Assembly (NCBI GenBank): GCA_000182565.2
Contig: KQ257452.1
Direction: 5' to 3' (one strand)
Source: Spizellomyces punctatus DAOM BR117
Taxonomy: Eukaryota
Length of the DNA stretch: 64,000 nucleotides
Positions 5,595 through 53,654 of the stretch are shown piece after piece. A model generated the notes under the pieces. That model searched no databases. It was given only the letters and a program-made list of their open reading frames with translations, and was not told the DNA's origin. Every line of letters starts with the position of its first letter. The first letter of the stretch is position 1. A program made the position numbers and the translations under genes.

Positions 5595-7186
5595 CCCCAG
5601 CCGGAGCGCGACGGCCCTGTTACAGCCGCTGGGATACTCCCAGAGCTAAACAGTGTCCAGTTCTCAATCCAGCCAAGTACGAACGTGAGACAAGCGCCGT
5701 CAGTTGCACTCTGCAAGGACAAGGACCGTTCTCTATCTTGCCAAACTCGGCTCCAATGTTCTTGGTACAAGACCGTCGGCGCCTCCTGCCTTCCCAAAGT
5801 TCTATGCCCTGTTTCTACTTGTCTTTACTCACCGTCATCATGCTCTGCAAAGGAATGGGGCATAGTGTATGGTGTGTGATAGAGTGAGCGTAAGGTCAGG
5901 AATTCAGAGATCAGACAAGTGGCAGATGGTTTGGACAGTGGTGGAATGTGACAGGGGAGATCGTATCAAGGGGAGGAGGTTCAAAAGGGTATGGAACCAC
6001 TATCTATATAATTCGTGGGGGGGTAAAGGATGCTCAAGTGTTCCGCCGCGACAATTGTGGCAGTGCTTTTGACTTTGGAAACTGTCTCTACGCGATCGCT
6101 TTGGACGTTGACAGGAAATGGTGTGAAAAGGGAATCTTTAAAGGACCAAATGTGGGGGAAATTGAACGAGACGTCAGGCTTTATACGCCTGTCATATGGA
6201 TAACAACGGGGAAAACTACGAGTTTTTCACGATACGACAACTTGTGTGAGCCGGAAAAAGCCCGTCAATTCAGCCCAAATCAACACCACCCATCGATACC
6301 ATAATCTGTGTGTGTGTTGAATAACTTATTAACCTCTGACGTTTTTCTTTTGGAGCTTCGGCTGAACGGAAAACAAGCTGCTTTTTCCAATGTTGTTTGT
6401 CTCTGTTTTTTATTTTTCATGTCCCCAAATCGCTTTCAACACGGTTGTTGTTTTGCACACTTGCAAAACGCGCTCGCGTAATCTGAGCGGATCGATTGCA
6501 GCAGGGCTTTTTTGCCGTTCTCCCCCCCTTTCGTCCGCTTCGTCCGCTTCTTCTCCGCCTGTGGGCTTTTCATCCTTTTTGCCCCCTGCGTATTGCAAGC
6601 ATGACAGATGGATAGACAAGAATATCGATGGGACTGGATTGATTAACGGACACTTGTTCAAATGGATTACTAGTATGAAGACGCCGTCATGCCAGTCATG
6701 GAAGTTGCTTTTGGAATACTGCTGGGTTTGTTTTTAGAATACTGCTGGTCATCTTGGGCAAGCAGATGTTGCAAGCAGAGAGTATCTGACAATCCTACTA
6801 AATACGTAGCGACAAGCAATACCTTGAGAGATACTTGTGCAGCATGTACATTGCGTACAATGGACAATATAACATTTCGTGAGCCAACGGATGGGCTGCT
6901 GCTGTTGGAATCTCCTATTCATCGCAAGAGTTCACAGTCATACTTTTGGACAATCTTTGTCTCTCTTGTTTGTCCGTGCCAGGGTGAGCAATGAAAAAAA
7001 AAAAAATGTGTTCAAAAAGTTGTTGAAAGCCAACATCTATCCAAGTTCCCATGGCAACAAGCTGTCATTTGTTTTCCTTGACAGTGTTGGAGTTTCCAGA
7101 AGGCAGCACCATAGCTGAGCTCTTGAGAAACCCATCCAGGACAGTGCTCACGCGACCTTATCGCTCCTTGACTTCAACACTCAACC

Positions 7187-11933: not shown

Positions 11934-14900
11934 CTACACTGATTCAGAGTCACTACCACTTTCATTCCGAGATTTTCTGGCTTTTGCTTTTCCTTTCCGC
12001 TTGTCCTTTTGCCTTTCCTTGCCTTTCCGCCGGTCATTTTTGGCAGTTTCATTCTTGCGAGGAGGAGGTTTGGACGATTTGGGTTTTCGTCGTTCGTGTT
12101 CGCTCTCGCTTTCTTCTGTTCCGCTAACGCTTCCTTCGGTAGAGTACGCCGACTCACTTTCACTTACGCTCTCACTTGCACTTGAACTTTCGCTTCGGCG
12201 GCTCCTGCTACTCTGCTTTTTCTTGCGGTTCGAAGGTTTCTTGTTACCGCTTTTCCTTGCGCTACGGGTTTTGTCTCTTGATTTTGCGCTACTTTTGGTG
12301 CGCGGTGATTCAAAACTCCGTCGCATGGGCGGGTTGCCTCGTGACATGTACCCTCCCCCAGCATACATGCCCGGAGGGCCATACTGCACAGACGGTGGCG
12401 CAAGATGTTGAGGTTGGTACATGGCGGGATTGTATCCCCCATGCGGTGGCCCATAATGTTGCTGTGGAGGGCCACCATAAGGAGCAGCGTAGCCATGCCC
12501 CGGATATCCGTACCCAACAGGTGGTGCGTTCCCAAAACTTGCTCCCCTTGGTCGCATACGTGCAACAAGCGGCTCATCATCTGTAGATTCACTCTCGCTT
12601 TCTGATGCATCAGATGGGTCACTATCGCTTGGAACTTTCCGCGCCTTTCCCTTTGGATTCGGACCGGGTTTGGTCTTTTTCACCTCACTATCACCGGTCA
12701 CATCGTCGCTGTCACTCTCCGTTCCCTCACTCTCCTCTAGCTTTGACTTTTGAGGTTTGGTTTTCCGCTGGAGGTCAACAGTGTCCTCGGACAATTCCTC
12801 CTCGCTTCCCTCAGTCCCGCTGTCACTCGTTTCCTCGGTGCCGCTCTGCGACTCTTCGTCGTCAGAATCACGTTTTCGATGTGGTCGTCGGTCGGAATGA
12901 CTGGAAGAACCAGAGTATGATTGTTCTCGTTTCCACATAAATTGTTGCGGAGGCGGTGGATGAAGTCCTTTTCGTGGAAATGGCGTTTAGTTAGACGTAC
13001 GGCTGCCATTCAAACCATAATCAACCTCTAACGTACCCATACCCGGAGCGCGCATCGTCGGCAAATATTGCGGTTGTGGACCAGACCATTCTACTTGTCG
13101 CTCCTGCATCCGCTGACGCTCTTTCGCCCTACCCCACAGCAAATGTCAACCTACGTCCAATACGAAAAACTATCAACAAGATTACCTCTCTCTCTCCAGC
13201 CACTGCTGCCTCAGTTCCTCTCTCTGCATAGCCGTTGCCGGGTCCTCGTAGACCTCTCCCATTTCACTCATCGGATACCCGTATGGTGACATGCCCCACG
13301 GCCCCGGAGGCGGCATCATGCCAGGCGGGAAGCCAAACGCACCGGGTGGTGCACCAGCAGGGAAGCCACCCATGGGGGGCATACCCATGCCCATTCCCAT
13401 TGGCGGCCCCATAGGTCCCATAGGTCCCATTGGCACACCCATTCCAGCAGGCGGTCCCATAATTGATTGTCTTTGCAGTCCGGCCATGCCTCCACGAAGG
13501 TAGCTCGGGATGTATGATCCAGCCACTTGTGGTCGGTACATGCCCATCTTCTTCAGCATTTCTTTTTCCTTCTCGCGTCGATCCACTTCGGCAAGTAGTC
13601 CTCCCACAACCTTTGGTTTGCGCTCCTCTTTATCCACTTTACCCAAGAGTGGTCCGTCCTGATAGGGCATGAATGGTTGCATGTAGGCACCGGGTGGTGG
13701 GCCAGAACCGCCGTGAGCAGCTTTTGCCAAGCGTTGCTCCTGCTCCTCAAGCACATCCGGTGCAAGCTGAATCAAAGGACCTGGCCGACGTGGTGCAGCC
13801 TTGTTTCGTTCGTCAAGCTGTGCAAGCAGAGATTGAGGCGCGTACAGATTAAACTCTCCTTGATCTTGGGCTTCTTCGTCGTTCTCGTCTTCACCATTGG
13901 CAGATGCGTTGTCATTTCCCTGCTCGCGTTGTGCAGGAGGTATAGGAAGGGGCATTCCATTTGGACCGATGATCATTCCATTGGGACCCATCATCATTGG
14001 TGGCATACCTGGTATCATTCCAGACATTGGCATCATGCCAGGGATCATACTGGGCATCACACCGGGCATCAGTCCAACGTTGTTCACAGGACCCTCTTTG
14101 CCTTGACCATCCTCACCCTCAGTCTCGCTTTCACTCTCACTATCTTCATCACTCTCTTCGTCATCGCCTTCACTCTTGGTGCCATCCGCTTTAGGCTTTG
14201 ACGTCTTCTCGGACTTATTCTCAGTGTCTTCACCCTCGGATTCGCTCTCGCTCTCCTCCTCGCTGTCCGACGATTCCTTCGCGGCAATAGGGGGAACAGC
14301 GACAGGCATCGGGGGCATCATTCCCATTCCCATCGGCATCATCATACCAGGCATACCCATCCCTGGTATCATCATGCCCGGGACTAGATTTGCTTTGCTT
14401 GTGCTGGCTTCGACTACGCTTGAGTCATCACTTTGCTCGCTTTGGCTACCATCGCCGGTACTGCTACTTTCCTCATCCTCCTCGTTTGTGTTTCCAGGCT
14501 GTGCGGGATTCTGTGCTTGAAATTGTGCATTGTAGGCGGCTGCATCAACATACTGATACTGCCAAGCCCATTGGCCGTTTGGCTGCATAACGGGAACAGG
14601 TACCATCATTACTGGCTGTTGCAGCTGCTGTGGTTGATTGGGAAGGGGTTTCTCCTTTGGTACTTCAGCACCGTTGGCAACATTGAGTTCTTTACTAGGA
14701 ACTTCAGGTACGGTTTCGCTCCCCGGTGTTTGAACGACAGGGGCGCCGGTGATGGAGCGCACACCTTCGGGAAGTGGGATCACAGGCTCGTTTTTCCCCT
14801 CGGTCTCCGCTCCCGGGGTTTCTCCATTAATACCTTGCACAGGTTCCTCGCTACCATCCTCGGGCTTCTCGGCATCCGTAAGGTCAATCTTTTCAACAGA

Positions 14901-17318
14901 CTCCGCCAGTTCAGTTACTACAGCAGGCTGAACTGGATTCATTTCGTTCGTGACGACTTCCGACTCTTGAGTTCCAGCAGCATCTTTGTTCACATTCGAC
15001 GCGTCCTTGACGCGGTCGGCAGAAATGGATTTCCTATTGGCCACCATACTCTTTCTAGATGCGCCCTCACCAGGCTTTTGTTCCTGTGAAGGAACAACCA
15101 TCCGACCAAGCCAGGCCACTAGCTCAGCAGTTTTATGCTCGACTTCTCGGACCTCATACTTTCTCCGTCCTTCTTCTCCTGCTGCAACCGCATCGTTCCA
15201 CTGAATGATAAAGCCGTCCGTTTTCGCTTTTGTCTTGTCTCGTAATACTTCAGCGTACCGGACACTAATACTGGCATACACTTCTCCTTGCATGTTTAAT
15301 CCCCCAATTTCTTCGACAGAGAGATATAATAGACCCCACATGGTCCCGCTGCTATATTCATCACTCTCCGATCCCGAGCCAGAGTCCGATGCATCCTTAG
15401 AAAATTGACCTTTGATACGCTTTGCGATTCCCACCTCGCCTTCCGCAATTTCCTTTTCGCGTCTCGCGAGATCCGAATCGAGGTTGAAGGTGCCCAGTAC
15501 AGCGATCAGCCATCGTGCAATTTCCGACGAATCCACTCCTCGAATATCAACAAACCCTGGGCTCGCTCGGGCGTCTGTCTGATTAGTAAATCCTCGGAGA
15601 GGGTCATCGGCAGTGGCAGCATAGCCTGCTGGTCCAACTAGAGCAAAAGTATCCTTCATAGGGGCATCCATATCGCGCTTCTCAATCCGCTCTCCCGATT
15701 CTGGATCGTACAGAGTCAACGACCCTTCTAAACGCGCAACAGACGCAGCACCCTTTTCCACGAGAGCAAGTGGCTCAGGTTGTAGTATATATGCCATGCG
15801 CACAATATCCATGGTAAACACCGGTTTGCCTTTTTTCACATCGGCTTTTGTCTCGTAAAATCCTACTTGACGCTTCGTACCATTTAATGGGTCAAGGTCG
15901 CTTGGGATAAGCGATGATGCACGTTTCTTGCCTCCGAAAAGCTTCTTTCCCAATGAAGCTGTTCCACTACGCTTGACAACGACATGAAAAGGCTTCCACT
16001 CGTTGGCATAAGTATACTTGACTTCAACCATTCCCTCATACTTTATTTCATGTTTGTGAGTCGCACTGTGGAATGGAACTACACCAATGTCCTTCCAAGC
16101 TGTTGCGTAGGTTGCCCGTTTCAGCATCTTCAACGTGAACAGTTCGCTGACTTTTGCGGCCTCAAAAACTGCCAAGCGAATGGCCGCTACCCAGGTATTA
16201 CACTGAATGGAGGACAGTGACGCTAGATAAAACAGATTTGATCCTGCCGTCGACAGGGCGAAAAGAGTCGTATATGGCACCGGGGGCGGAGTCGCGAGGC
16301 CCGGCCCCTGCTTGACTTGAAAGTTTTGAGGGAGCACCTCGACGACACTCTCCGTAATGTCAATGACAACAGGATGTGGTTGAGCTGTCTTGATGGTAGC
16401 AATGGTAGAAGGCGCGGGATCAAGCTCTAAACGCAGTACTTTATCGACAGTGGGTGTCGGATTATAAGTCAAGGCAATGATATGCTCGGGAACGCGCCAC
16501 AATTTGAGAGTGGTGCCACGTAGTTCTGCCCAGAACTTTCCCCACTCTCCATTAACATCACCCTTGATTTCTGGCTCATCTTTTGCGCTCAATGGTCGAC
16601 CTCGCACTCCAAGTTCATTCTTCTTGTAGATATAACCATCTGTATATTTCTTTTTGGACAAGGTTTGGATGATCGGGAGTAGGTGTTCCATATCAGCAGA
16701 AAGCGGCGGTAGTTCTTCCTGTTGCGTCTGCGCAACGGGAAGAGGAAGCACATTCTTAAGGCGAACCGATGCAATTGCAGAATCACCTACGCTAGGCGGT
16801 GGTGATATGTCCACCAAAGTGGCAGACTTTTGGCGAGCATGGCGAGCATGGCTACTCGGAGATGTGAGAGTTGGTTCAACATGTACACTATCGGTCGACG
16901 GTCGTTTACTCTGTGGAGGTGTAGTTTGCTTCCACAAACTTGAAAAGGGTCGAGATTTGCTACCATCTGTGGACTGGCGGCCCTTGGTAGTAGGGACGAG
17001 AGGTGGGGAATTTGGAGGGGAATCCGGTTTACGGACAGAGAGGCGATTGGGTGACGAAGGTCCTTTCTGTACCGCCCGAGACGCATTTGCATATGATGGT
17101 CCATCAGCGACAGCATGCAGTAATCCACCAATATCAGCGGGCTTGGAGGACCCTGAGGAAAGCTGTGGTTTTGGGACCTTATGCCCTGGCCTCAAGTTTG
17201 CACGCGAAAAACTTGGTCGAGGAGTGGCCTCCGGGTCGGAAGAAGATGTTGTGTCAGAGTCCGACTCGTCAGTGGACGAGTCTGCTCGTCTTGGAGGAGT
17301 ACCTTTAGGAAAAAGCAT
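11934..17318 (-). CDS. Large PH-domain protein of the Skg3/Caf120 type with Pro/Met/Gly-rich and Ser/Glu/Lys-rich tail
   Basis: DGYIYKKN...WGKFWAELRGTTLKLW, LSTAGSNLF, WVAAIRLAVFE and GGLLAEVDRREKEK. Two short introns (13129-13185 and about 12968-13036) join the 1421 aa and 334 aa ORFs in frame. Confidence 0.75.
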
Positions 17319-18101
17319 TGTGAAACACTGTACCTGGAAAACAGAACAACCAAATGGCTCATTGCCAATAGTGCCTTCACGACAACCTTCTAAAGCACCC
17401 TGGCCCTCCTTCGAGGAACTCACCTTTCTGGACTCCCCTTCTCTCATCCCCTCGTGAAACCGGTTTCCTTGACGCTACATTCTGGACCTTGTTGTAGAGT
17501 GCATCCAGTTCCTCTGAAGAAAAGAGGGACATTAATAGTACAACTAGTGTAAACTAGTATGATTCCTGTATGCCGCGACGGAAAGAAATGGGTAATATGG
17601 ACAAGGAAAGATCTAATTAATGACCTGTATGCAAAAGAAGTCTGATGGCCAATGAGCCGTTGACCTCGAACGACTTTCCTCAAAACCAGAGCCATTTTGC
17701 AGCTGTGCCACCCAGTGCCTATAGCCGTTTGCGGACATGGGTTATTTTTAGCTTGGATTTACTATTTCAACGTGCATCCCCAATTTTGCAGATCCATAGC
17801 AAGAAAAAAAAACACATCATTAGCAGTGTCGCTATCCAAAAGATGTGCCCATCTCCTCTTTAGATCATATTCTCTTCCTCGCATATCAAACAATGATTTG
17901 GGATCTTAAGAGGCCACGATCCGAATGTAAATAAAAATTAAAAAAACAAAAAACAACAACAACATAGCCTTGAACAGTCGACGAGTTCAACGTCGACATA
18001 CAAAAAACAACAGAATCAGCCTTCTTATTTGAACACGGGAAATTGTGGTTGGGAGAAAAGATTTCACGCAACAGGCTACTGGACAGCGAGATCAGTCCAA
18101 T

Positions 18102-23478: not shown

Positions 23479-24066
23479 GTTCAATTTGTATATGTGCGTG
23501 GGGATTGGTGTTGGTTTGCTGTTGGCTTTCGTATGGATTCTTTTACGATGTTCTTGCTGTAACTTGAATGCAAAACGTAATAGTGGCAGGAAAAAGGGCT
23601 TTTGCAAATGTCCCTAGCGTTTTTATAACCCCCTCCGATACCAGCCCTTTATCACACATGTTACGTCATGTTCCATCACGTTGTGTACATTACATTGCGC
23701 AGCAGCCATGTGAATCATTTCCAACAACAAGCGATCAAGGCTTGTTGGGAGGAACACTGTTGTGAAAAGTCATTATCATTCACATGGATTGGGGTGTAGA
23801 TTTCTTATCTCCATTGGAGGTCTTTTCTTGCTTTTGACAGCGGGGGGTTCTGTTTGACCTTTAGATTGGACCATCCGCGGTGACCTACGAGGAACAATGT
23901 AAGAGCACGGTTCAAAAACATGCAATGCTCTTTGCGAGCTTTTCTTGAGCTGAGCTGAGGATGTTCTTCATTGGGGGTTGGTCATGTTCTGTATATTGCA
24001 GAGGTTGGATACAAAAAAAGAAAATTCCATCCGCGTAGAGTAAAAACCAAGCGTTGTGTGAAGAAA

Positions 24067-24149
24067 TGGGTGCTGTGAGATTCGAACTCACGCCTCCGGA
24101 GAGACTACGACCTGAACGTAGCGCCTTAGACCAACTCGGCCAAACACCC
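24067..24149 (-). tRNA. tRNA-Leu(CAG)
   Basis: GGGTGTT...AGCACCC acceptor stem, D-loop TGGCCGAGTTGGTCTAAGGC, anticodon arm CTACG-TTCAGGT-CGTAG, long variable arm, T-loop GTTCGAATC. Confidence 0.97.
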
Positions 24150-39533: not shown

Positions 39534-40619
39534 ATGCCAATCATTTACGGCCTGGTCGCCCGAGGCGCCATCATCCTCGCCGAGCATGCAACGACAACAG
39601 GAAACTTTACCACTGTCACCCAACACATTCTCGAACGCCTACCGGAAGGCGATTCGAAAATGACGTTTGTTTACGATAGGTTTGTTGTTTTGAATATTGT
39701 GTTAGGTGCCATTGAACAGTTGGCTGACGGTATATTGGACTATCAGATATCTATTCCATTACATTAGCCGCAACAACATTACGTATCTCTGCTTAGCTGA
39801 CGATTCATTTGGTCAGTAGATTGGGCGACCATGACATTTTTTCACACCGAACTTACAAATCTCTTGCACAGGTCGTCGCCTCCCATTCGCATTCCTGGAA
39901 GATATCTCCCGCCGCTTCGAAAATGCATATGGAGATAGAGCCCAAACAGCGATTGCATATGGGTTGAACGAGTTTTCCAAAGTGATTGCAACGCAGATGG
40001 TGGGAATTGTCTACATGTTGAGCAAAAATGGTCCATCACTAAATACATGTCGTACCACTGTTTAGGAGTATTACTCAAACAACCAGGGTGCAGACCGATT
40101 GAGACAGGTGCAAGGAGAGATTGATCAAGTGCGAGATGTGATGGTGCACAATATTGGTACGTCTGCCTATCCTATGAATGAACCAACCGCTATCTTCGCA
40201 CGCTGCTAACATCATTCCGATGATTAGAAAAAGTTTTGGAAAGAGGCGAACGCATTGAGATCCTCGTTGACAAAACCGACAATCTAAACCAAACCTCTTT
40301 TGCCTTCAAGAAACGCTCAACGGCTCTTCGTCGACGAGAATGGTGGAAAAACACTCGGTTGATGATCATTCTCGTTGCTGTTATCTTTCTGGTCATTTAC
40401 TTTACCGTTGGAGCTTCGTGTGGGTTCCCTGGATTCCACAAGTGCATTGTGGGTAGCTGTTTTATTTTTGATTGACAAGCTTGGTGTTTTAACTACTTAT
40501 GATAGGGTTCTGACTCCGCCAACAATGTCACGTAAGTCATATCCTAGCATGCGCTGTACGTGTTACACATGTCCCTAACGAGATCCTGTAGGCCAAACTC
40601 TGCTCAACTGCTGGAATAA
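39534..40619 (+). CDS. VAMP7: Longin R-SNARE VAMP7/SYBL1
   Basis: MPIIYGLVARGAIILAE longin start, [41 protein letters not shown], WWKN plus a transmembrane segment. Confidence 0.93.
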
Positions 40620-40934
40620 CGTCTCCCTTCCGTTGATGAGGACACGTAGATTTGCGTCATTTGCAAGTTTGCCACTTGTGCTTGTACCTCTGTTTGTAAA
40701 AAGCGACATATATGTGAATATAAGATCTTGTTTGAACATATTGGGGAGGTTGTTAACGGAAACTCTCGGGTGGACATTTAAATGATTGTGATACGATGGA
40801 CTATGAGCTGCACCGACTCTGGATACTTGGTGATGAGACGTGAAATTGATATCCTCCTACAGTCTTGTTCACTATAGAGTAATTGATGTTTGTCTTTCTT
40901 TTTGTCATATTCGTAACGTCAGTCGTTGATATCT

Positions 40935-41400
40935 TTTCTTTTCATCCTTTTTTCACAATTGGTCTATGACCAGTGCCAACGCAACTATCAGTCCATCTCA
41001 GCCAGGTCCTCCCTCAGCCCGAAGACATATTGGGTATAGCAGCCGCCCCAACCATCGCGACTGCAGTCCATGCAACCACCCACATGCAACATAGTACGAT
41101 CCAGGTCCTCCCTCAGCCCGAAGACATATTGGGTATAGCAGCCGCCCCAACCAACGCGACTGCAGTCCATGCAACCACCCACTCAGGCCCTCCCTCCGCC
41201 CGAAGGCATCATTGGGTTATATCCCTCCGCCCGAAGGCATCATCGGGATATAAGTAGCTGCTCCACACCAGCGCAGACTACAGTCCATCTCAACCACGGG
41301 TCCTCCCTCCGCCCGAAGGCATCGTCAGGTATACCTCCGTCCGAAGACATCATTGGTATAGCAGCCGCCCCAACCATCGCGGGTCTGCAGTCAGCGTCAA
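40935..41400 (-). ncRNA. Putative structured ncRNA: four units plus a partial unit containing six UUCG-capped k-turn-type hairpins
   Basis: Unit = GGACT + stem-loop + one or two [CCC-RAT-GAT-GYC-TTCG-GRC-GGA-GGG] + AGGRCC; compensatory changes in the stems; upstream TATA box; no reading frame is maintained across units. Confidence 0.55.
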
Positions 41401-41436
41401 CCGGTGAAGTTCAAAGCAGGGGGACAAGGGAAGTGT

Positions 41437-41450
41437 GCCTTTTTATAACC
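41437..41450 (-). promoter_or_regulatory. TATA box (GGTTATAAAAAGGC) of the left unit
   Basis: Identical 14-mer to 42303-42316 in inverted orientation; ATTGG (CCAAT) about 100 bp upstream. Confidence 0.65.
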
Positions 41451-41762
41451 GAGGGCGACTGCGCGTTTGGGGTTGTGGGGCAGGGCATGCAACGTAAGCT
41501 TTTCTCTCGAGAAGACGATGACGTTCTAGTCCCTTGAGAGTAGCACCAATCGACGTTGATTTGTAGAACGTGCTTCTACCCCTGGCATCTCCTTGACGCG
41601 CTCGTTCTTCTGCGGAAATTCACGACGAACCTTCTCGACCGACTGCGACCGCCGTAAAACAACTGGACATTAAAACGACATTGAGCATTGAAAGGCTGTC
41701 CATATCCTGCATTGCCTGCTGTTGATATGTGCAAAACGGTCGTTTTCATCCTACTCGAGTAG

Positions 41763-42118
41763 CGTGGGAAAAAGATAAATAAATGACTAACGCGCTCACA
41801 TAGTCATCACACCTTCAAAAGGGGGTTTAATCCAGGAGGGCGACCGCAGGGCTTCTTTTTTGAACATTCGTACAAAACCTATCTGATCACGATTAACTGC
41901 TCAAAGGGGCACTGGAGCACCGACCATCTAGTTGCTGTCGGGTTATGCGAATATTGACAGAGCTTTTTCGAGTGCGACAAACCCCCACATCTAGGCTCGA
42001 CGGAGAGCGATCCTTAAGCAAAACAAGTACTGGACATCCTTTGCTGTCTGTGCATACGATATTCGTCTTTCATATCGTTCGGGCAGGACCGTGGGAAAAT
42101 CAAGATAAACAAATGACT
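41763..42118 (+). promoter_or_regulatory. Duplicated composite motif CGTGGGAAAA..AGATAAA.AAATGACT (41763-41788 and 42090-42118)
   Basis: Direct repeat between the divergent TATA boxes. Confidence 0.55.
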
Positions 42119-42302
42119 CGCTTCATCACGCGTTTACATAATCTTGACTCGCGCGCGTGTGCAAGGGGAACGAACGCATGCCAGGAGGTGAAAACGACGA
42201 CGATGATTGGGCGTTCATGGCGTGCTCAGAAGAATGACGTACGCAGGATACGGAATCTTCCGCCGAGAATTCCGAATGGCAAAAAAAAGCGCAGTTCCCC
42301 AG

Positions 42303-42316
42303 GGTTATAAAAAGGC
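42303..42316 (+). promoter_or_regulatory. TATA box (GGTTATAAAAAGGC) of the right unit
   Basis: Inverted copy of 41437-41450; preceded by GCGCAGT and ATTGG as in the left promoter; followed by a pyrimidine tract. Confidence 0.65.
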
Positions 42317-42339
42317 GACCCTCTCTCGCATATCCCCGC

Positions 42340-42610
42340 ATTTCTCTTCATCTTTCCTTCCGCCTCGGGATGGCATAAAACTCGCTCCAGCCATGGGTAC
42401 TGGCGTAAAACTCAACTCGGTCCAAAAGTATACCGGATAACTTTAAAGGCCGTTGTAGTAATGCAACGTGATAACCTCTTTGAGGTGGGCGCCTGGGACT
42501 GATCGTGTGCGCGCGCCAGAAATGGTAGGAGCAACGACTCGCCGGAGCCTTCGGGCGATGATGGCATCCTCTTCGGGGGAAGGGCCTGTGATAAAGGATG
42601 AAAAGGATGA
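42340..42610 (+). ncRNA. Putative structured ncRNA or 5' leader with a permuted k-turn and UUCG/GAAA tetraloops
   Basis: GGACT + stem containing GCCA-GAAA-TGGT, then GCC-GGA-[GCC-TTCG-GGC]-GAT-GAT-GGC, TCCTC-TTCG-GGGGA, AGGGCCTG, and a trailer shared with the left unit. Confidence 0.5.
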
Positions 42611-42699
42611 AAATGATTGCTAGCCAAACTGCCGTTGAAATCCTATCCAGACACACTCTCAAACGAACGCGATATTGCCTACAAGGCAACGCTCACTTT

Positions 42700-45600
42700 C
42701 TTCCCGCGTGGAACCGACACAGAAATACAACCCTATTATCCACCTGTATACGGCAGGATGTTACTACAAGAGTATGAATGGGTGAACCATAGCGCTGACA
42801 CACACGTTAAGCACGATTCATGAGGGCCGCTCTCGACAAACGAAATAAGTGATCTTGAATAAAACGAGCTGCCCCATATTGGAAGGCACAATTGTGTCGA
42901 CATCCATGAAACCTTGAGAGATTCTGGGTCCGTTTTCCGCCATAGGACACCATTGAGTGGTCCTCACAGCACTGGATGCGCTGATGTGAACGCTTTTAGT
43001 TCGTATCATATCGCTGCACACAATCGACTATTGGATATTTTACTGTTGAACTGCGATGCAAAACTGTTCATTGTTATGTTAACAGATCTGATAAATTGGA
43101 TTGTTCCATTTTTGTGTGCGGATGCGATGCAGGGCTGCCGATGGATAAAAGGATTCTCTGATTTCATGATTGATAATGCGATCCTGGTAAACTAGATGCC
43201 ATCTTGAGAATTATGTGATGCTGATTTAGCTGTCTTTATCTCGGAATCCGATCCCTATGATAAAGTCCTGATGCTGATAGTTATAGCCCTGTTGTGGATG
43301 AAATAGTTCTTTACTTTCCTGCAGATTCAAGCCGACCCTCTTCCTCGAATCTCTGACGTAGCTGTTCGAAACCAAATTGTCAGCAAATGACTCCAATAAG
43401 CTCCCCAGTCGGCCATCAAAGTTGCAAGGTAGGGCATCTATTCTGCAAACCTTATTCGAGGGTGTGGGTTCGTTGATAGTCTATGTCGCAGGCCTGAACC
43501 ATGGAGATCAGGCATGCTTATAATGCTAATGGCATTTACAACCATGCTTTAAGGACTGGAATTCCGGTTTATGTCTTCTTCCTATGGATATTTGCTTCTC
43601 GAGACCACTTTTTTCCTTTGGAATTCCAACACTCCCGCAAAGAATGGGCTATTTCCATCATGTAGCATGTTTCCTCTCAATAGAAAAAAGTATGCCAGAA
43701 GCTCTTTCTTTCTCGAACGCACTTTTGCCAACGGTGGGTTCTAATCCTGTTCAAGGTATCGTCTCAACCATAACCATTAGCTTAAGAAAGGAATATCTGT
43801 AATTTATTTTCAGTTCGCACACATTCGGGTAGCCAAACATCGTGAAGATTTTAGATCTTTAGAGCACTTTATACATCCTTTGGTACATTATTTATTTTAC
43901 ATGTCCTAGGGTCACCAGCTACTAGATGTTTTTCATTAAACACCTGGGGACAATATGACAGCTGATGAAAGATTGAGGCGGAGGCCAAAATTGATTCATA
44001 TGCTTTGCTTATTGTCTTTAGAAACAAGCATCTTACGCTGAAAATGGACCTTGAGCGCAAAAGGTGCACAAACCCGCGTCTGGTGAGGGATGCACCCTCC
44101 CGACGACAACAGGGAACCCCAAAAAAGAAACGCATCAATTATGATAGATATTAGGAACATGTATGACCAGATGCGCTGCCCAGGGATTTCGTGAAATGAT
44201 CCAAATGCAAACTTTATTGTTCGCAATTATCTCCAAACGGATTGTACAGCCTGGAACTGATTATCCAGGACATAATATACTTCCAATGCAATTAATATCC
44301 AGGATTCATGCTAGCATCGATACCATCAACGTCAATGTATGTGGTCGATGCCTTCTCTCAAAGCACAAATAATTATTGGTTTAAAGGTGCTCTCGATAAT
44401 CCCACTGCGAACAGTGACAGAGGTGTCATGCCAAGACCATTTTGCTCTCACTCCTTTAATTGGAAAGTGCTGGCAGGAACTGATGATCCAGGTAAGGTTA
44501 TATCATCGTTTATTAATCACACTCACAAGCTCTCGGTCAATAATTCTGCAGCCTAATGATTGAGTGTGTGTAGTGGGAGTATATTCTAGAATAAGGCTTT
44601 GCACCGACGATATCCTATGACTTGCTTGACGATAGGCGAGTCAAAGTTTTTCAATCAGACATTTAGCAATGTTGACTCAGTCGGAGTGATGCATCGGTCG
44701 ACTTGTCTTGTACTCTCTCGATGATTTCGGAAGTGATACATGTCGAGTGCTTGGATTGTGGGGGAGGACACTTGTTCTCGTTGGCAAATTGGAGATGAAA
44801 TAGAAGCATTACGTTGGAGCATCATAGCAAGTTGCAACTTTAGGATAAGGTATGCTACAAGTTCAATGTGCATGACATCCCTTGCGCCCGATCTTGCTTT
44901 AAGAACAAGTTTCGCGTTACTTTCCAGCTAAACGTCTTAAAGCAAGTATCGAATCCCAAGAGAAACAAAGTTCTAGCATGTGAACATGCTTTGTCGGATC
45001 ACCGGTCCTATGTGGTCTGGCAAGACTTTTCACCCGATTTATCTATCCCGCAGATTAGTGAGAATGTCCTTTATTGCGGACATCAGATATACTGCTTTTG
45101 CGAACGAAATGCGTTATGTACTAGAAGAAACAATTGACATGTAAGCTATGGCAGGGAGCGTTAACTAATCATGCAGGTATGCGTAAGGATGGTATCAGGC
45201 CGAAAACATTGTGTTTTGTTTCAAGAATCATTGAAACTATTCACAGAGCATATTGGAGCACAAGTCGCCATCATTGAATAAGGCCAATCATTCGAAGGAT
45301 ACATTTATGCAATCTTGTGTTGAGAAGCTGATGTCTACGGAAAGGCGTTCATAGTGAGCTTTCACATATTGATAACCGACCGGATTATGTAGCAGATGGA
45401 GAGAAGGTACTCGAGTGTGCTTTACACATGACGGATGACCAGGAACAAAATTCAAGTTGGCGGAAAAAGAACTGTACAAATGCGTGTGAAGAAAGCACTA
45501 TGACGCTCGATTTTCTGTTTTCATTTCGGCAAAGATGAACAGCATTAGGGTCTCACAGTTACTAGGCCCAATTTTTTCAACTCAGCATGCAACATTTGCA

Positions 45601-46995
45601 TATAACCATTGAATTCAGAGGCAAACGCTTCAGCCTTAGATAGAACGCTGTAAAGCGTTGGTGACAACGAGACGATCGTGCCGTTGCCAAACTGCCTCAC
45701 TCAAGAACCTCGATCCTCGTCATGTTGAAATGATAATTGCTAGTACTCGCTCCGATGGAACCGATCAAAAAATAGGATGGCAAAGGTGTCACGAATGATC
45801 CGTCAATTAAATAGCGCTCTGATGTGACATAAGTACCGATCTAGATCTAGCTTGCTGAAATGAGTACAAGTGAGGTCATTATAATCATGTCTTCTTTGCA
45901 TGTTGATTCTTCGCTTGAGACGAATTTTCGTCTTTATTTAATCGAAGGAACCCGAGATTTAATTGATGCAATGGATATCAACAAAGGGGCCAAACTAAAT
46001 GTCGATATGTTATGCTTTCAACGTGCCTACTGCCGAAAAGGCAAATGTTGCAGCTACAGTGTCAACCGGTCGCACCAGACGTGATGTCGGTGCTCTCCAC
46101 GCGACCAAAGGATCTCTCTGATGTGGTCGTTCAAGACTGGATAGTAAACAGCAGACGTCAGAATAGTCCACTAAAAGTATTCCACATTCTTTCATCATAT
46201 TCAGTTCAGTTGGTGCAGGTAAAAAGCACATTCGCAAAGATTATCTCAAGGAGATCACGACACTCTGCTGCAGGACAGGAAATAAACCGTGCAAACAAAA
46301 ATGGTGTAGACGGCATTTTCGAGATCTGGTAGATAAAAGTGATTTTACAAACCCGTGTCCCGAGTCAGACGTACTCTGGTCATCCGTGGTGAGAGCGGTC
46401 AGTTGATGAACGCTGCACACAATGCCCTGATCAGCGGGTGCTAAAAATGTCCCCGAGTACGATTCCTACATCTTTGTGCACGTCATTAGCATTACTCCCT
46501 TTCGCGCAGAGCATTTGTTACTAATCCCGAGCCTATAATATACAAAGATATCTCAAATATAATTGATACTGCGGCTCAAAACGTCGGTTTCTCAGAGAAT
46601 ATGACCGAGTTGAAGATCGCTCTTAACGACGCCGATTTTACGAGTATCAGTCTCGTTCTTCTGGCGTGTACAGAGAGTAGCGGCATGTCTGCACAACATC
46701 GTGTACTCTTTGTTTGTGAAGCAGAGGCGGGACGAATCTTGCAACCAGGGTGCAAAAAGGCGTTCCTCAGGCTAAATGAGGAAGATATTTGTTATTCCCC
46801 ACATTTCTATCTTCAGAGTCTTATGTTCGTTTGTATGACAGCCGGATGAATATCTTGTATTCCAAAGGAACGATAATGTCATGCCCGTGCCAGTGTATGA
46901 CATGCCTATTATCCCTGGCTTTGATGATAAAACTGCACATAGAGATAGGATCCGTTAAACGTACTCGTGAATTTATATTTCCTACCCGCACGTAA
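42700..46995 (+). pseudogene. Probable heavily decayed large gene(s), unidentified
   Basis: Lower GC and no long ORF, but protein-like fragments and an intron-like element gtaagc...ctaatcatgcag (45141-45176). Confidence 0.3.
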
Positions 46996-47418
46996 AAATA
47001 TGGAAGCAACTTTAAAACTTAATCGCTTCCATACTTATTTAATTACTAGTCCCAGCACAAATGTTTAAACCAGAGCACGTGCAAACCTCTCACGAGCATT
47101 TCGAAAGTGAAGGTTAAAGTTAAAGTTACTGACATAATTAACATACATAGTGTGGCGGTGATTGAAAATGGCACTAGAACTCATTATTATCCGGATTAAT
47201 CCGGTTAGTCATATCGCATAATCAGCACCCCCTCTGTCGCCCAAAGCGGTGAGGCATGCAGCGGTGTGGCATGCTAATATGATTTTTTTTTTTAAACTGC
47301 GGTGAGGCGCATGCCAAAGGTCTATAAAAGGGGGGCCTTCTGTCTCTTTCCTCTTTACCCATCCTCGACTCTCGAAGCATCTGCGCAACGCTCACGCAGC
47401 ACTCTCAAGTCCATCATC

Positions 47419-47701
47419 ATGAGAATGCCGCTCTGGTGCCGAGGACCTCGCCCTCCCGACAAAAACAACATAACCCCTTGCAAACGCTGCTACTACTATG
47501 CTGCAACGATCGCAGGTATGCATTATCTTTGTATTTTCCCACGCGGATTATCCAGTCTAATTCTGATCTACCTTAGTATCTGAACATCCTCCGACAAAAG
47601 AATTTCGGAATCAAGGGCTTAGTAGGATTTCTCGCGTGGTGGTGGGCTTAGTTACCCGGTTAGAAACAACCGTAATGTATTGCATGTGTAATTGGGCCTA
47701 G
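47419..47701 (+). CDS. Small 2-exon ORF (73 aa), MRMPLWCRGPRPPD..., paralog A
   Basis: TATAAAA at 47323, phase-1 GT-AG intron 47516-47576, homology to 54888-55221. Confidence 0.45.
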
Positions 47702-50116
47702 TGGTAGTTGGTTGGTTGTAGGGAGGGAATTACTTGGCTTTTCCGAACCGGTTGTCGCCGGTTTATTCCCTGGTGTGGTAGCTAGTGCCAGTTTCTGTCA
47801 CCTCTGCACTAAAATATATTAATATGAGGCGCCGATCCATGGATCAAACCCTGGGAGCGGGTTTAACTTCATTGAGTAGCAGAATCAAACCTTGATTGTG
47901 GGCGTTTTATTTTGTTGGTTATTTATCCGGCTGAAAGATCTCCAAATGAGCGATACCGGGCAATTCAAGCAGCGAGGGCATTTATGAGGCAAGGAATGTA
48001 TATAGTCGGAGGCCTTTTCCAAGACACGAGAGCATGGATGCGCATTGTGAGCTCCAGCGATAATTTGAAATATGTGTCAAAGACCTCAACGCATCAAGAA
48101 TGGAGTAAATGGTTTATAGATTGTCGTTTTTGCTTTAACTTGTCCCTGCGGTAATGTTGGGGGTTTTATTCACTTTCATCTGCAAACACGACATCCATGG
48201 CAATTACTGCATTTTGTGTGACAGCTTGACCGTTTTCTGCTGAGCAGATTTCCTGACATACTCTGGCCCCAAAGCGGCCTACTAGAAGAGCGCGAATGGG
48301 CTTTTCTAGGATACAAACTGCGTTAATGAACCTTGGAAAACTCTGTCACCAATGACGTAGGGCCTATGCGTCAAGCGATTTGCAAAGAGGAAACCCTTGT
48401 AACTCTTGAGCGTGAGATAAAACATTGGAGGTAGAAATCGTTCATTGAGGATGGAGAAATCCCGAACAGAAGGGGATTTGTCCGTATTATTGTCTTTTGG
48501 ACATACAATATTAGTTTGAGGAACGAATGTTTGGGGAACGATATGGATACAGAACTGACTTAATGGATGCTACAAGTACTAGGCAAAGCGGTATTACAAG
48601 ACGGCTCAGTTGATTGTTTTATGCGGCGTCACTCCCGTGCGATAAACCTGGATGTCTATCGTCTTCTTGGTTCAGTGATTAGGTCAATACCAGCCCTTCT
48701 TGCCATCTAAGCCCAAAGCGCGGTTAACACGGGAATGCCTGGAAAAAAGAAATAAGAGCGTGCTATTCGCACAGGGCAAAGCGGTGTCTCATGCAGTCTG
48801 TTGGCTTGACTGTACGGCAGGTGCAAAACTTATGCAAGGGTATACTTGTTGGAATGACTCTTCAGGGCCAATGACGTCCATAAGCAGACATCTTGAAACA
48901 TTAGCCAACATAACCAATACATTGTAAGTGGGTTATTGCTAATTACTTGAATTGATTATTCTGGGTGTAACTGATAGCCAATCTTAACTTGTGCCCCACT
49001 TGTCACTTCACTTACTTACTTGACGGTAGAAAGTAACTAAAGAATAATCTGGCGTACACAGGATTGGATGTTGATGGAATATGGTAGCATGCTGTAGAGT
49101 GATCAGATGTGAAAAAGGTAAATAACCAGTGAATGCTTCAATGATTCCAATGCATTTTCCTCATCTTCCTTGTTCCTTAAACTACAAGTAAATGGCACCG
49201 TTGAGTCATCTTTTCAATGCAAAAAGCCCCAGTACCAGACAGTGTGGGATGGCTCGTTGAGTAAAAATTGGGGACTAAACACACCCACTATTATGACCAA
49301 AAGTGTAATTCGGAAAGATACAAAAAGGGTGTTGAAAAGATCTATGAGTGATACCCAATAAGTTGGTATAGAATTTCCCTGCTCTACTTTCATCACGTTC
49401 GTCCAACATCGAATTTCTTTCGTTGTCTATAAGAATGTTGCAAATCGGGTGAACCTCGCAAAGGGAAACTCGGTTTGTGGGATGGTTCCTGCTGGGCATT
49501 AGGTCACGGTATATATACAAGTGCACAGAGTTCCATCTGATACAATTCATCCCAAGCTGCCCCGTACGGAGGAGCATCTAATGGGGTTCAAGATGAGGAA
49601 TGTTGCAAGGCTGCATCCGGTCTCTGGTACTCTGCAAGATCAAATCTTCTTCGAGTGCATTGGTTGGACCGTTGCGTTGGATATTAGATTATCTTCGCAA
49701 TGACATATAACAGTCAGCGTTTTGATAACGGTAATCAGCAGCGAGTTGGGAAAGGTTTGGACTTGTCCACAGCAAGGATGGAGGGCATAGTACAAAACAA
49801 TCTGTTTCCAAGGCATGTTCTTGCGTGCGGGCTACTCGCTACGGCGAATTCTAACATGCGTCCTTTATCAAATGAAAGATGCAGCACTTTATTTCCTTCT
49901 TTACAACGTGACTAGGATGCAGATGCCGAGAGTAAAAGATGGTTCTCGAAAATATGAGGCTCTAAAGATTGTCCAAAAGTCTGGCACGTACCAGCGAGGA
50001 CAATTCCATGCTAACTATGCATGACCAGCGGTTCATGGTCTCTCGCGATACGAAGATGCTTACGGTACATGACAAGACTAAACGACGGAATTGTTCTTTG
50101 TGATTCATGAGCTCCT

Positions 50117-51111
50117 CTAAGCTCCCAGTTTGGTCATTGCCTCCATCACCATCGCATTGCACCTACATATGCAAAACAATTTGAGCAACACAGTTCATAA
50201 TCACGGACCAGATCGCAACGTACATTTTCGCATACGGATTATTCCGCACAGCAGCTTTTGCAACCTCGTTCCCGTATCGTGCTCCTTGGGCAAAATCGCT
50301 CTCCGCACCCGCAGCGTCCCCCTGCGATTTGCGGATAATTGCTCGTTGTGTATATGCCTGATTTGGCAAAGTTGGGTCAGCACACTTGTCGTGTAGTCAG
50401 GCTGGATGGAACAGGTACCTGTTTGAGGACTGATGCATTTCCTACACCGTATTCAAGTGCCCGCTCTAAATCCTCCAAAGCCTCCTTTACTTGTCCTTTG
50501 AGACGGAACGCTTGTGCTCTGCACAGAGGTGAGCACACATAAACAACACAAACTGCACCCGAATCTTGTGCCTTGCCACATACCGATTGTTGTATGCACT
50601 TGCATATTCCGGGCAAAGAGATATGCATTCGTTGAGCTTATCGATACTCCCTACGAGATCATTGTGTTCCGCAAGGATGACGGCCTCTTGTTCAATCATT
50701 TTGAGACGAGTGAGTGTCATGGAATCGATGGCGGGTAGTGTGGTTGCTGTTACGAGGGCATGGGGATGTCAAAATATTTGATCTGCACAGTGTCACCAAA
50801 GACATTTACCATTTCCAAGGAGTGGTTCATCATCCAACGCCAGCCCCGAGTCTATAGAGAGAGAGTGACAAGAGCCGGTTTCGGTCAGGTTGATTTAAAG
50901 AAACTGTTTTGCCGCATGGGTCTTTTAGCACATACCAGGGTTGAAAATGAGATTCAGAATGTTCTTGCAACGCAGCATATCATATGAAAATCAGATGATA
51001 TTCACAAAAAGCGGAGCGGCCGGGGACAATGCATCATTGCTCCTCATGGTAACCCACCTCGTCGTGCCGGCTGACCGCACTGACAGCGGCCCCATTCCCA
51101 GGTTGTTCCAT
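50117..51111 (-). CDS. TTC36: Tetratricopeptide repeat protein 36 homolog
   Basis: Spliced product SRHDE|NILNLIFNP...ASAYNNR|AQAFRL...AYTQRA...NPYAKM|CNAMV. Confidence 0.88.
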
Positions 51112-53654
51112 TGTGGTTGGTCTGCAAAATGGGGTTCCGCTCAATGTACGTGAGCATATTCCGCCCGTTCGAAACCACACTCCATCCGATTATGTCGTTC
51201 AATCACATGCTGCCACATGATCCGATTCCGGTTGCTCTACACCTGCTGACGTTAACCTACACTTGCTGACGGCAGATCGGGCATCCGCCCCATTGGCACC
51301 GGTTCCAAAACCGAGGCTAAGAAGAGGTTCGGATGAGACCGGCTCCAATCACTGCTTTCGGAGGGCAAGTGGCGCCGCCCGAGCCTCTTGTGAACGGCAA
51401 GCACATGACTAAAAGTTTATCCAATCCATCCTTGGGATTGCCCCCCAACCAGTTGCATTACTCCCGCAAGGCGCGGATGAAATATCTCGTTTTCATTGAA
51501 TAGGGGGCACTATGGGGGGGAGGCATGTGTTATCTCTTTGGCTGTTACGACCTGGCAATCTTTTTTATAAATCTGTACATCGTTCCACCTGGCATCTCCT
51601 TTAACGAAGGTTGGGGGCCATGCGTGAGATACGCTTCTTCTTCTTCTTTGACCCTCTGTTCTTGCAACAGACCCCACTCGAAAAAAAAGGCCCACGGACG
51701 AAAACGGATCACATTGGCCAAGACTTCCGGTCCAACGCACCATTTGTGTGATCGTGAGTTAGCCTGGCGCGTATCTGATAAAACTCCTCCTCTCATTTGC
51801 AATATTCCTCTCCTGGAGTTTATTTGGGTGACACGTCGGAGGAAAAGACATCCGCGTTTGCAAATGAGACTTACTCTCCTTCCACAGAGAGAACGTTTTT
51901 GTGGGCCAGACTCTGTCTTCCATGCCTGGAGCGGGTTTTTTTTTCCTTGAAAGCTGATCTCGACTTGAACGGGAATTAATACTTTCCGCGGAACGTGTCT
52001 GTCCATGGATCAGGGTCGTGCGTGATCTCATAATCAGTCGGTCATCGCCACCACATGACGGGGACGCGTGCCGTTCACTCGGTCCCTTGGGTCTGCACCA
52101 GGAGCATCGGGCGCACCTCCCAGGGACAACGGACTCACGGGAAAATGGCAAACGCCCACATGTCCTTGCACAAGCGTTTTGCAACTTCAGGGTCAAGTGA
52201 AAAGCCATGGGAGGCGTACCAGAACAAGAATTTAAAGAAATAAAACTTGTTTACAAAGCCCCACCCGACCAACGGGGTGTGTGTGGTGCATACTGTACCT
52301 GGCGTCTGGCGGCATGTCACAAATCAGGACAAGATGAGAGCGTACCTCCATGTCGTCACTCTGCCGTAGTTTCCAAGGTGTTTTCCCCCCCCCATGCGTG
52401 TGTGTAGTGCGTGTGTTTGTCAATAGTACAATGGGGGCGATAGCGCCCATTCAATTGTGGAGATCACTTGTATATTTTTTCAAACATGGCGTAATTGTTT
52501 TTTTTATTACTAGATGCTAAAACGAGCATGAATCATTCTAGCTTTTCCCCTCACTTTTGCACGCGCATAAAAAGCAATTCTGGGCCTCGACAACAATCTT
52601 GTTCTCTAGCGCGCCGATGGAATAAGTTGGGAGGGGGGGATCCGAGCCCGTGTCTTTCACTCCTCCACAATATGAGTGGTTTACAAGAGCGACAAATTGA
52701 CAGTTGAACGCAAATTGCGGTTGACCCGCATTGTACTGCGGTTTTGATTTTCTCTCGTCTTTTTTTTAATTTTCAATACGAACAATAGGGGGCGAACAGA
52801 GCAAAAGGGCGCTGGCGGTAATAAAAACTTTTTGCGCGTGCAGGTCCGTGTCAAAAAGAAAATAACGGAACAACGGAAGCTCCACGATGATACAAAGGGC
52901 AGACGCATGACTGCGCCATGAGATCAGTGGCTGACTTGTTCACGTGATGCGTCCTGAAGCCAACATTCTGGTTAACCTTCGCAACATCGGTCGAACTAGA
53001 ATCGTACCTTACCACGTTTACGTCACTTGTGTGCGCCGTTCTGGGATTAGAGGGCGGTGCTCCAAACTCTCCGGGAATGTGGATCCATGCAACTAGGTCA
53101 TGGAATTTGAGCCCCCTTCCCCTTTGTTCCCCAAATCTGAATGTTGTTGGCAGGAGAAGAAAGATCCAATTATCCTCCAAGGTCTTACGCATCTGGCCTC
53201 CTTTTCACCCCCCAGGGCATTTCCCTCCCAGAGTCCTTTAGGGTTCAAAAGAGCATTATTGCCACACACACACACGGCGGAATCGTCGTAGACAAGTGCT
53301 CTCGCATTTCCGTTAAACACTTCTTTTTTTTTTTATCCCTTCTTGTGGCCCCCTGCATTCCCTTTTTTTTTCCGTGTCTCTGGGCGGGCTCATTATAACA
53401 GACGCATTTTGAACAAGTCGTTTGGGCTCTGTGCAAGGATCTCTCTTTGAACGTTAACGTAGCCATTATAAAAAGCCCTCTCGTCCTGGTCTTTTTCCCC
53501 GCAAGTCAACTTTCAAATATTCCTTTTTTTTTATCTTGTTACCATTCCTTTTCCCATCGTGAGGCTTTTCGCCATCGGCAAACCTCGTTCAAGCCTCAGA
53601 TCCCAAACGTAAAAACAACAACACGAACAACAACTCCCGCCGTTCATCAAAAAG

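Follow-up and report, generated by a model that had tools for sequence, protein, structure and literature searches.

Long non-coding RNAs (lncRNAs) that are made by RNA polymerase II (Pol II) and are modular in build are exemplified by NORAD, with its Pumilio sites, and by the fission-yeast meiRNA, with its DSR motifs. Among early-diverging fungi, we know of almost no non-coding RNA genes that have been described. Literature searches for chytrid non-coding RNAs, as judged from titles and the openings of abstracts, yielded no chytrid lncRNA locus. Here, we describe a locus of Spizellomyces punctatus DAOM BR117 that lies at positions 40,935 to 42,610 of a 64,000-nucleotide (nt) stretch of contig KQ257452.1 (NCBI GenBank assembly GCA_000182565.2); this whole stretch is called “the window” below. 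The locus comprises two short units, the left and right arms, that face away from each other as an inverted, head-to-head duplication. This duplication is real, discrete blocks of it are conserved, and one arm has amplified a short module; the arms have no conserved open reading frame (ORF), no known RNA family and no transposon ends. Like the modular Pol II lncRNAs, the locus features a putative TATA-type promoter, a body composed of a repeated short unit that could serve as a set of binding sites, the absence of a conserved ORF, and a rapidly changing copy number. Unlike NORAD and meiRNA, it is known from sequence alone, and its module matches no motif that we could name.

The case for the duplication comes from a comparison of the two arms. 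The best collinear chain of matches between them scored 97.4 bits, a value that was reached by none of 200 dinucleotide-preserving shuffles of the right arm (mean 20.0, maximum 60.5). When the promoters were aligned globally, only about half of the columns were identical, and the identity fell into discrete blocks that occur in the same order and at similar spacing. Because the identity is concentrated in ordered blocks, the duplication is old, with some of its parts retained; such a pattern is to be expected when the regulatory parts of an old duplicate have been constrained. An earlier reading of the DNA, made without database searches (the sequence-only reading), had proposed an inverted duplication of a complete non-coding gene: promoter, structured body and 3' signal. 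The head-to-head duplication held up, the arms having in common a leader and a distal block in addition to the core promoter and its upstream blocks; the structured body and the 3' signal did not, as detailed below. That reading had also argued for a gene family, but no further copy of the arms was found within the window, and a scan of prokaryotic genome contigs for a 23-nt module returned no matches.

The best-conserved block surrounds a TATA-like 14-mer, GGTTATAAAAAGGC, which is found exactly at 41437-41450 (-) and 42303-42316 (+). The two boxes point away from each other and are separated by 852 nt. Upstream of each lies GCGCAGT (41458-41464 (-) and 42289-42295 (+)); GATTGG follows at 101 nt (left) and 98 nt (right) upstream of the start of the 14-mer, and ATGCCAGG is located a further 37 and 27 nt upstream, at 41581-41588 (-) and 42178-42185 (+). 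Aligned with BLASTN, the TATA blocks (41468-41405 (-) vs. 42285-42350 (+)) are 72% identical over 68 columns, with an expect value (E) of 4.5e-6 in a pairwise search and of 0.001 against the whole window. The 14-mer, GCGCAGT, GATTGG, ATGCCAGG and the distal “trailer” had all been listed in the sequence-only reading, and going back to the DNA we located every one of them where it had been placed or a few bases away.

How unusual are these elements in the window? With up to two mismatches allowed, GGTTATAAAAAGGC has three matches, compared to 0.42 expected, and none of 100 shuffles reached three. The third match (23617-23630 (-), one mismatch) is directly upstream of an ORF with a universal stress protein (USP) domain; it thus looks like an ordinary TATA box. 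More generally, TATAAAAR is enriched (11 matches vs. 3.3 expected; e.g. at 23620 (-), 33340 (-) and 53467 (+)), and copies of it closely precede the ORFs with a USP domain, for the GATA factor and for the C2H2 factor. Strong TATA boxes thus appear to work as ordinary promoters in this organism. The ATGCCAGG block is likewise enriched (seven matches vs. 2.1 expected), and may be a shared upstream element. An additional copy is present at 51588-51595 (-), 19 nt upstream of a TATA box at 51562 (-), and the related sequence ATGCCAAAGG (47311-47330 (+)) occurs directly before a TATA box at 47323 (+), within a gene-poor stretch.

Between the two promoters, the central region holds a partial direct repeat (41735-41830 and 42062-42160) that carries TGACTAA and TGACTC motifs, which are candidate bZIP-type sites, together with a GTGGGAAA...GATAAA block. 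This repeat looks like a duplicated upstream regulatory segment. The overall arrangement, i.e. head-to-head arms with mirrored upstream blocks at similar spacing, resembles that of divergent paralogous gene pairs that arose by inverted duplication and use a common bidirectional control region. In ordinary pairs of this kind, however, the coding bodies are the best-conserved parts, whereas the bodies of these arms share just an 11-nt core and a loosely conserved module.

From TATA box to trailer, the left arm measures 480 nt (41437 to 40957) and the right arm 271 nt (42316 to 42587). The left arm is longer because of nested tandem duplications inside it. A 99-nt unit fills 41002-41182 with 1.8 copies (98% matches), a 31-nt unit is present twice at 41191-41252 (93% matches), and a module of ~31 nt recurs in six copies with spacings of 99, 82, 31, 82 and 28 nt. 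Given their identities of 98–99% and 93–94%, these repeats are young. The claim in the sequence-only reading that one copy had amplified its module is therefore borne out by the 99-nt and 31-nt tandem repeats and the six-copy family of the left arm. Aligning the copies on the outward strand gives the module as CCAAT-(G)ATG-YC-UUCG-GRC-GGAGGGA; individual modules are 31–45 nt long and carry AUGAUG(C/U/G) and, in some cases, CUGA. The left arm holds three minus-strand copies of the 11-nt core of the module, GCCTTCGGGCG, and the right arm one plus-strand copy (42547-42557); the rest of the window has none. A partial module, CCTCTTCGGGGGAAGGGCCTG, follows on the right at 42566-42586. The six left modules are all minus-strand sequences and the two right ones plus-strand sequences; thus, each lies on the strand that its own TATA box would transcribe. 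The coordinates of the parts of the locus are collected in Table 1.

Table 1. Parts of the duplicated locus and the nearest gene to its left, in window coordinates.
Feature	Position	Strand	Description
Convergent longin-SNARE gene	ends 40475		3' end is the next feature to the left of the locus
Left distal block	40915..40957	-	TGTGAAAAAAGGATGAAAAG plus a weaker extension; outer limit of the similarity between arms
Left body	40958..41404	-	G-rich on the minus strand; nested tandem duplications; six ~31-nt modules
Left core promoter and leader	41405..41468	-	GCGCAGT, TATA 14-mer, pyrimidine-rich leader
Left upstream blocks	41546..41590	-	GATTGG 41546-41551; ATGCCAGGGG 41579-41588
Shared central region between promoters	41600..42170	.	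Holds a partial direct repeat
Right upstream blocks	42178..42210	+	ATGCCAGGAGG 42178-42188; GATTGG 42205-42210
Right core promoter and leader	42285..42350	+	GCGCAGT, TATA 14-mer, pyrimidine-rich leader
Right body	42351..42586	+	Three short upstream ATGs, then a 33-aa ORF; one full and one partial module
Right distal block	42587..42636	+	TGTGATAAAGGATGAAAAG, then a 9-nt tandem repeat AAAGGATGA in 2.8 copies

At their outer ends, the arms share the trailer that the sequence-only reading had called near-identical. Indeed, 18 of 20 columns are identical between 40957-40938 (-) and 42587-42605 (+) (BLASTN), and a weaker similarity (73% over 37 columns) continues outward as far as 40915 and 42636. 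Taken alone, though, the trailer is only marginally significant (E of 0.09 and 0.03 in pairwise searches), and the window contains one more exact copy of its 13-nt core, AAAGGATGAAAAG, at 6566-6578 (-), with four matches in all at up to one mismatch compared to 0.09 expected. This third copy is located upstream of the acetyl-CoA carboxylase gene, in the spacer that separates that gene from a divergently oriented plus-strand gene starting near 7172. Moreover, trailer 7-mers were not enriched in the 300 nt that follow the stop codons of 11 protein-coding ORFs (1.82 per 300 nt vs. 2.61 in random pieces of the window). A general 3'-end signal was rejected on this lack of enrichment, and the “3' signal” of the sequence-only reading is not supported. 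Since the core occurs in an unrelated promoter region and the 3' flanks show no enrichment, the block is better described as a conserved distal element of the duplicate; it is possibly a recurrent cis-motif.

Paired end blocks in inverted orientation also bring to mind a non-autonomous DNA transposon, either a miniature inverted-repeat transposable element (MITE) or a deletion derivative, in which the trailers would be terminal inverted repeats (TIRs) and the modules subterminal repeats. Some transposons do carry subterminal repeats in inverted orientation near both ends. The locus has this feature: its ends are inverted copies of each other in the 18 columns noted above, and short repeats are arranged symmetrically, in inverted orientation, near both of them. 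Its differences from MITEs are more telling. Similarity between the arms fades gradually past the trailers, with no sharp end. When 105 x 120 possible pairs of ends were scanned for TIRs accompanied by a target-site duplication (TSD), there was a single match, with nine of 12 TIR positions and a flanking repeat of only 3 bp, and no pair of transposon ends with a TSD stood out from the null at the locus (mean 0.2, maximum 2). Furthermore, the locus is present in one copy in the 64 kb, its best-conserved block is the internal TATA region and not the termini, and its promoters point outward. We rejected the MITE class on the lack of sharp ends and of a convincing TSD, and we assign to a transposon of any of these kinds the lowest probability among the explanations treated here.

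What, then, does the locus do? Our preferred explanation, which we hold tentatively and at somewhat below an even chance, is an old inverted duplication of a short Pol II transcription unit whose outward transcripts would be non-coding or would encode micropeptides, and whose left copy was later enlarged by tandem duplication. Transcription of the units is inferred here from promoter-like sequence alone. Under this model, the two copies would fire outward from a shared regulatory center of ~850 bp, with predicted transcripts of ~0.3 kb on the right and ~0.5 kb on the left; these would most likely be non-coding, with at most incidental micro-ORFs. Four kinds of block have survived since the two copies arose: the core promoter with its upstream blocks (ATGCCAGG, GATTGG, GCGCAGT, TATA); the pyrimidine-rich leader; at least one copy of the ~30-nt module, in which a C(UUCG)G mini-hairpin is placed between AUGAUG and GGAGGGA; and the A-rich distal block, AAAGGAUGAAAAG. 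The left copy later grew in a minisatellite-like manner, by nested and partly very recent duplications of the module. Outward transcription would presumably end near the distal block, and the retained module may be active within the RNA, e.g. as an array of sites for a protein to bind. The units probably give lineage-specific non-coding transcripts. A more specific proposal is that the arms are chytrid-specific modular Pol II non-coding RNAs in which the ~30-nt array (AUGAUG, C(UUCG)G, GGAGGGA) titrates or scaffolds an RNA-binding protein, with a stress-type bidirectional promoter driving them and copy number tuning the dosage. This version we regard as quite improbable.

A number of results weigh against the tentatively preferred transcription unit, and the first group of them concerns RNA structure. 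Folding of the outward strands was unimpressive: the z-score was -1.75 for the left arm (three of 100 shuffles were as good) and -1.32 for the right arm (nine of 100). The antisense strands scored -1.39 and -0.33, respectively, so that the strands hardly differ. We found a single recurrent hairpin, which has 3 bp and a UUCG loop (GYC-UUCG-GRC). All 23 of its 23 cells pair, and one copy has U-A in place of C-G, a double change for which U-G intermediates occur. The covariation was nonetheless not significant, being matched by 255 of 500 shuffles. On these values, the “structured body” of the sequence-only reading is not supported. Duplexes of leader and trailer had energies of -15.8 and -21.4 kcal/mol, and 63% and 49% of 500 shuffles, respectively, were at least as stable; a panhandle of 5' leader and 3' trailer was accordingly rejected. 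In addition, a search with Rfam at E<=10 over 40400-43200 gave no match in either arm; its sole match was a riboswitch-like one of 17.7 bits at 40609-40674, which is outside the arms and far from the cut-off of 65.9 bits. Three further points are of a different nature. The distal block, as described above, is not specific to 3' ends. The 99-nt duplication, with its identity of 98–99%, is too recent to be informative on selection. Finally, the left body has a G-rich minus strand, in contrast to the C bias of coding strands that one study (PMC3315797) reports for fungi.

The arms were also compared with known classes of small RNA genes. Being short and without a conserved ORF, and having a strong TATA box as well as AUGAUG and CUGA in their modules, they resemble the genes of small structured RNAs such as small nuclear RNAs (snRNAs) and small nucleolar RNAs (snoRNAs). 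They differ from these in lacking an Rfam match at the permissive threshold given above, an Sm site, RUGAUGA on the strand that would be transcribed, and significant structure. At the gathering threshold, the covariance models of Rfam 15 matched only a tRNA (24067-24149) in the window and nothing in the arms. An Sm-class snRNA, in which a 3' hairpin would come after the Sm site RAU(3-6)GR, was rejected because this site had no matches on either strand of 40850-42700. RTGATGA occurs twice in the same interval, on the minus strand of the central region (41810 and 42129) and not in the arms; a box C/D snoRNA, in which a terminal stem joins a C box (RUGAUGA) close to the 5' end and a D box (CUGA) close to the 3' end, was rejected because neither arm has RUGAUGA on its transcribed strand. 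Runs of five or more T are absent from the minus strand between 41437 and 40900 and from the plus strand between 42316 and 42700. This absence argues against RNA polymerase III, and a type-3 gene of that polymerase (U6, 7SK or MRP-like) was discarded for want of a T-run terminator in either arm. A telomerase RNA was dismissed as well, there being no CCCTAA in the locus.

The last points against the preferred unit, inasmuch as it would be non-coding, come from two short ORFs, and they are also the points in favor of a rival: that each arm is a gene for a small peptide, of 45 amino acids (aa) on the left (MVGAAAIPMMSS...) and of 33 aa on the right (MVGATT...MMASSS..., 42522-42620). The left ORF opens at the first ATG after the TATA box (41377), with G at positions -3 and +4. 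Both ORFs start with MVGA and contain MM-x-SS-x-G. Their first five codons (MVGA...) differ mostly at third positions, to which the first three nucleotide differences are confined. The codon log-odds of the right ORF is 0.11, or ~1.7 standard deviations above the non-coding null (-0.04 +/- 0.09; known ORFs have 0.17 +/- 0.11), on a score that is weak for ORFs of such length. By the same score, outward ORFs of the left arm range from -0.07 to -0.22, the 45-aa ORF having the value of -0.07.

Other evidence opposes the peptide explanation. We scored protein similarity between the arms over nine frame pairs; the best pair had 29, a score equaled or exceeded by 61% of 200 shuffles, the maxima of which averaged 30.2 +/- 4.0. 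The frame pair of the 45-aa and 33-aa ORFs scored 28, which is below the mean of the shuffled maxima. Paralogous protein-coding genes were thus rejected, no ORF being conserved between the arms, a result that fits the non-coding unit proposed in the sequence-only reading. Because the repeat periods (99, 82, 31 and 28 nt) are not all multiples of three, the frame of the module shifts between copies: even the 45-aa ORF contains it first as MMSSDGG and then as DDAFGRR. Three upstream ATGs precede the right ORF. Pfam was searched at E<=0.1 with 46 ORFs, of which eight are in the locus (40578-42820), three overlap the end of the right arm or are just beyond it, and the rest are downstream. None of the eight locus ORFs or their three neighbors had a match; downstream, there were only weak TPR matches at 50.4-50.8 kb and a few at chance level. 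Homologs were sought for the left 45-aa ORF. A k-mer search returned none, and phmmer, run against 1.84 billion representatives, found a single match (E 3.2e-5) to a 1323-aa repeat protein (P0121), consisting of nine stretches with 31% identity. We judged this match to be a chance one inflated by repeats. Considering all of these data, we deem it unlikely that the arms are coding, and we give the peptide-gene explanation a low probability.

Very short ORFs behind strong promoters are also a trait of fungal a-factor-type pheromone precursor genes. As described in one report (PMC10569646), these genes have a short ORF that ends in CaaX or CPaX and a stop codon; they sometimes occur in duplicate and generally escape annotation. 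The arms differ from them in the decisive feature: of the 28 ORFs with an ATG start that were listed for the arms, not one terminates in Cys-x-x-x-stop, and the pheromone-precursor idea was removed on this ground. A frame in the right arm that does end in CDKG-stop has no ATG.

Another rival dispenses with a pair of genes. The locus might be regulatory or decaying DNA: either a duplicated bidirectional promoter or enhancer with arrays of binding sites, or dead duplicates that drift neutrally while undergoing a minisatellite-type expansion. Every left module bears CCAAT (five copies on the minus strand, 40962-41356), and GGGCGG occurs in six copies among them, as would befit an array of binding sites. 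The enrichment of ATGCCAGG and its recurrence beside the TATA box at 51562, as well as the recurrence of the trailer core in an unrelated promoter region, are in keeping with this explanation; so are the youth of the repeats and the failure to find a signal of either structure or coding. Pure neutral drift, on the other hand, is hard to square with the retention of ordered blocks over a background that has decayed to ~50% identity. A regulatory array would also be oddly placed: the arrays are downstream of the outward TATA boxes, and there is no gene beyond them to regulate. To the left, the neighbor is the 3' end of the convergent SNARE gene; to the right are ~7.5 kb without a Pfam match. On balance, we consider regulatory or decaying DNA possible, but on the doubtful side.

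The importance of the locus depends on which of these explanations is correct. Were the unit both transcribed and conserved, it would represent a compact orphan RNA gene that keeps its promoter and ends while its body turns over by tandem duplication. Were it not transcribed, it would amount to an inverted duplication that is decaying within a long intergenic region, and would be of little wider interest. At most, then, the locus is an orphan, lineage-specific transcription unit; such units are of a familiar kind, and its importance is modest unless expression and conservation are shown. The idea could be put to the test, because a transformable chytrid has been reported (PMC7213984).

The surroundings of the locus have some characteristics of their own. 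On its right side, from 42.7 to 50.2 kb, there is no ORF of at least 130 aa and no Pfam match. For a compact fungal genome, a gene-poor stretch of this length (42700-50200) is unusual; it harbors one isolated TATA-like unit, at 47323 (+). A dinucleotide bias resembling that of repeat-induced point mutation is absent both from the locus and from this stretch. On the left side, the introns of the longin-SNARE gene (39682-40225), which we mapped by eye from ORF fragments and the sequence, have variable 5' splice sites, namely GTTTGT, GTCAGT, GTGGGA and GTACGT, and the gene includes a micro-exon of 44 nt. Because the splice consensus is weak, hidden small exons are hard to exclude in this genome.

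Elsewhere in the window, the longest ORFs include those for acetyl-CoA carboxylase, an aldehyde dehydrogenase, a GATA factor and a C2H2 factor. The best named relatives of the C2H2 protein, at 51–61% identity, are from Geranomyces variabilis, Thoreauomyces humboldtii and Powellomyces hirtus, all of which belong to the Spizellomycetales (Chytridiomycota). The tRNA mentioned above is a tRNA-Leu with the anticodon CAG and a long variable arm, located on the minus strand; it is the sole match of Rfam and ARAGORN in the window. Lastly, in the segment 12001-16000 the AT skew is strongly negative (-0.24 and -0.17), as is, without a qualifier of strength, the GC skew negative over an ORF of 1430 aa (13182-17474 (-)) that bears a fungal PH-like domain. 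This skew probably reflects low-complexity coding sequence.

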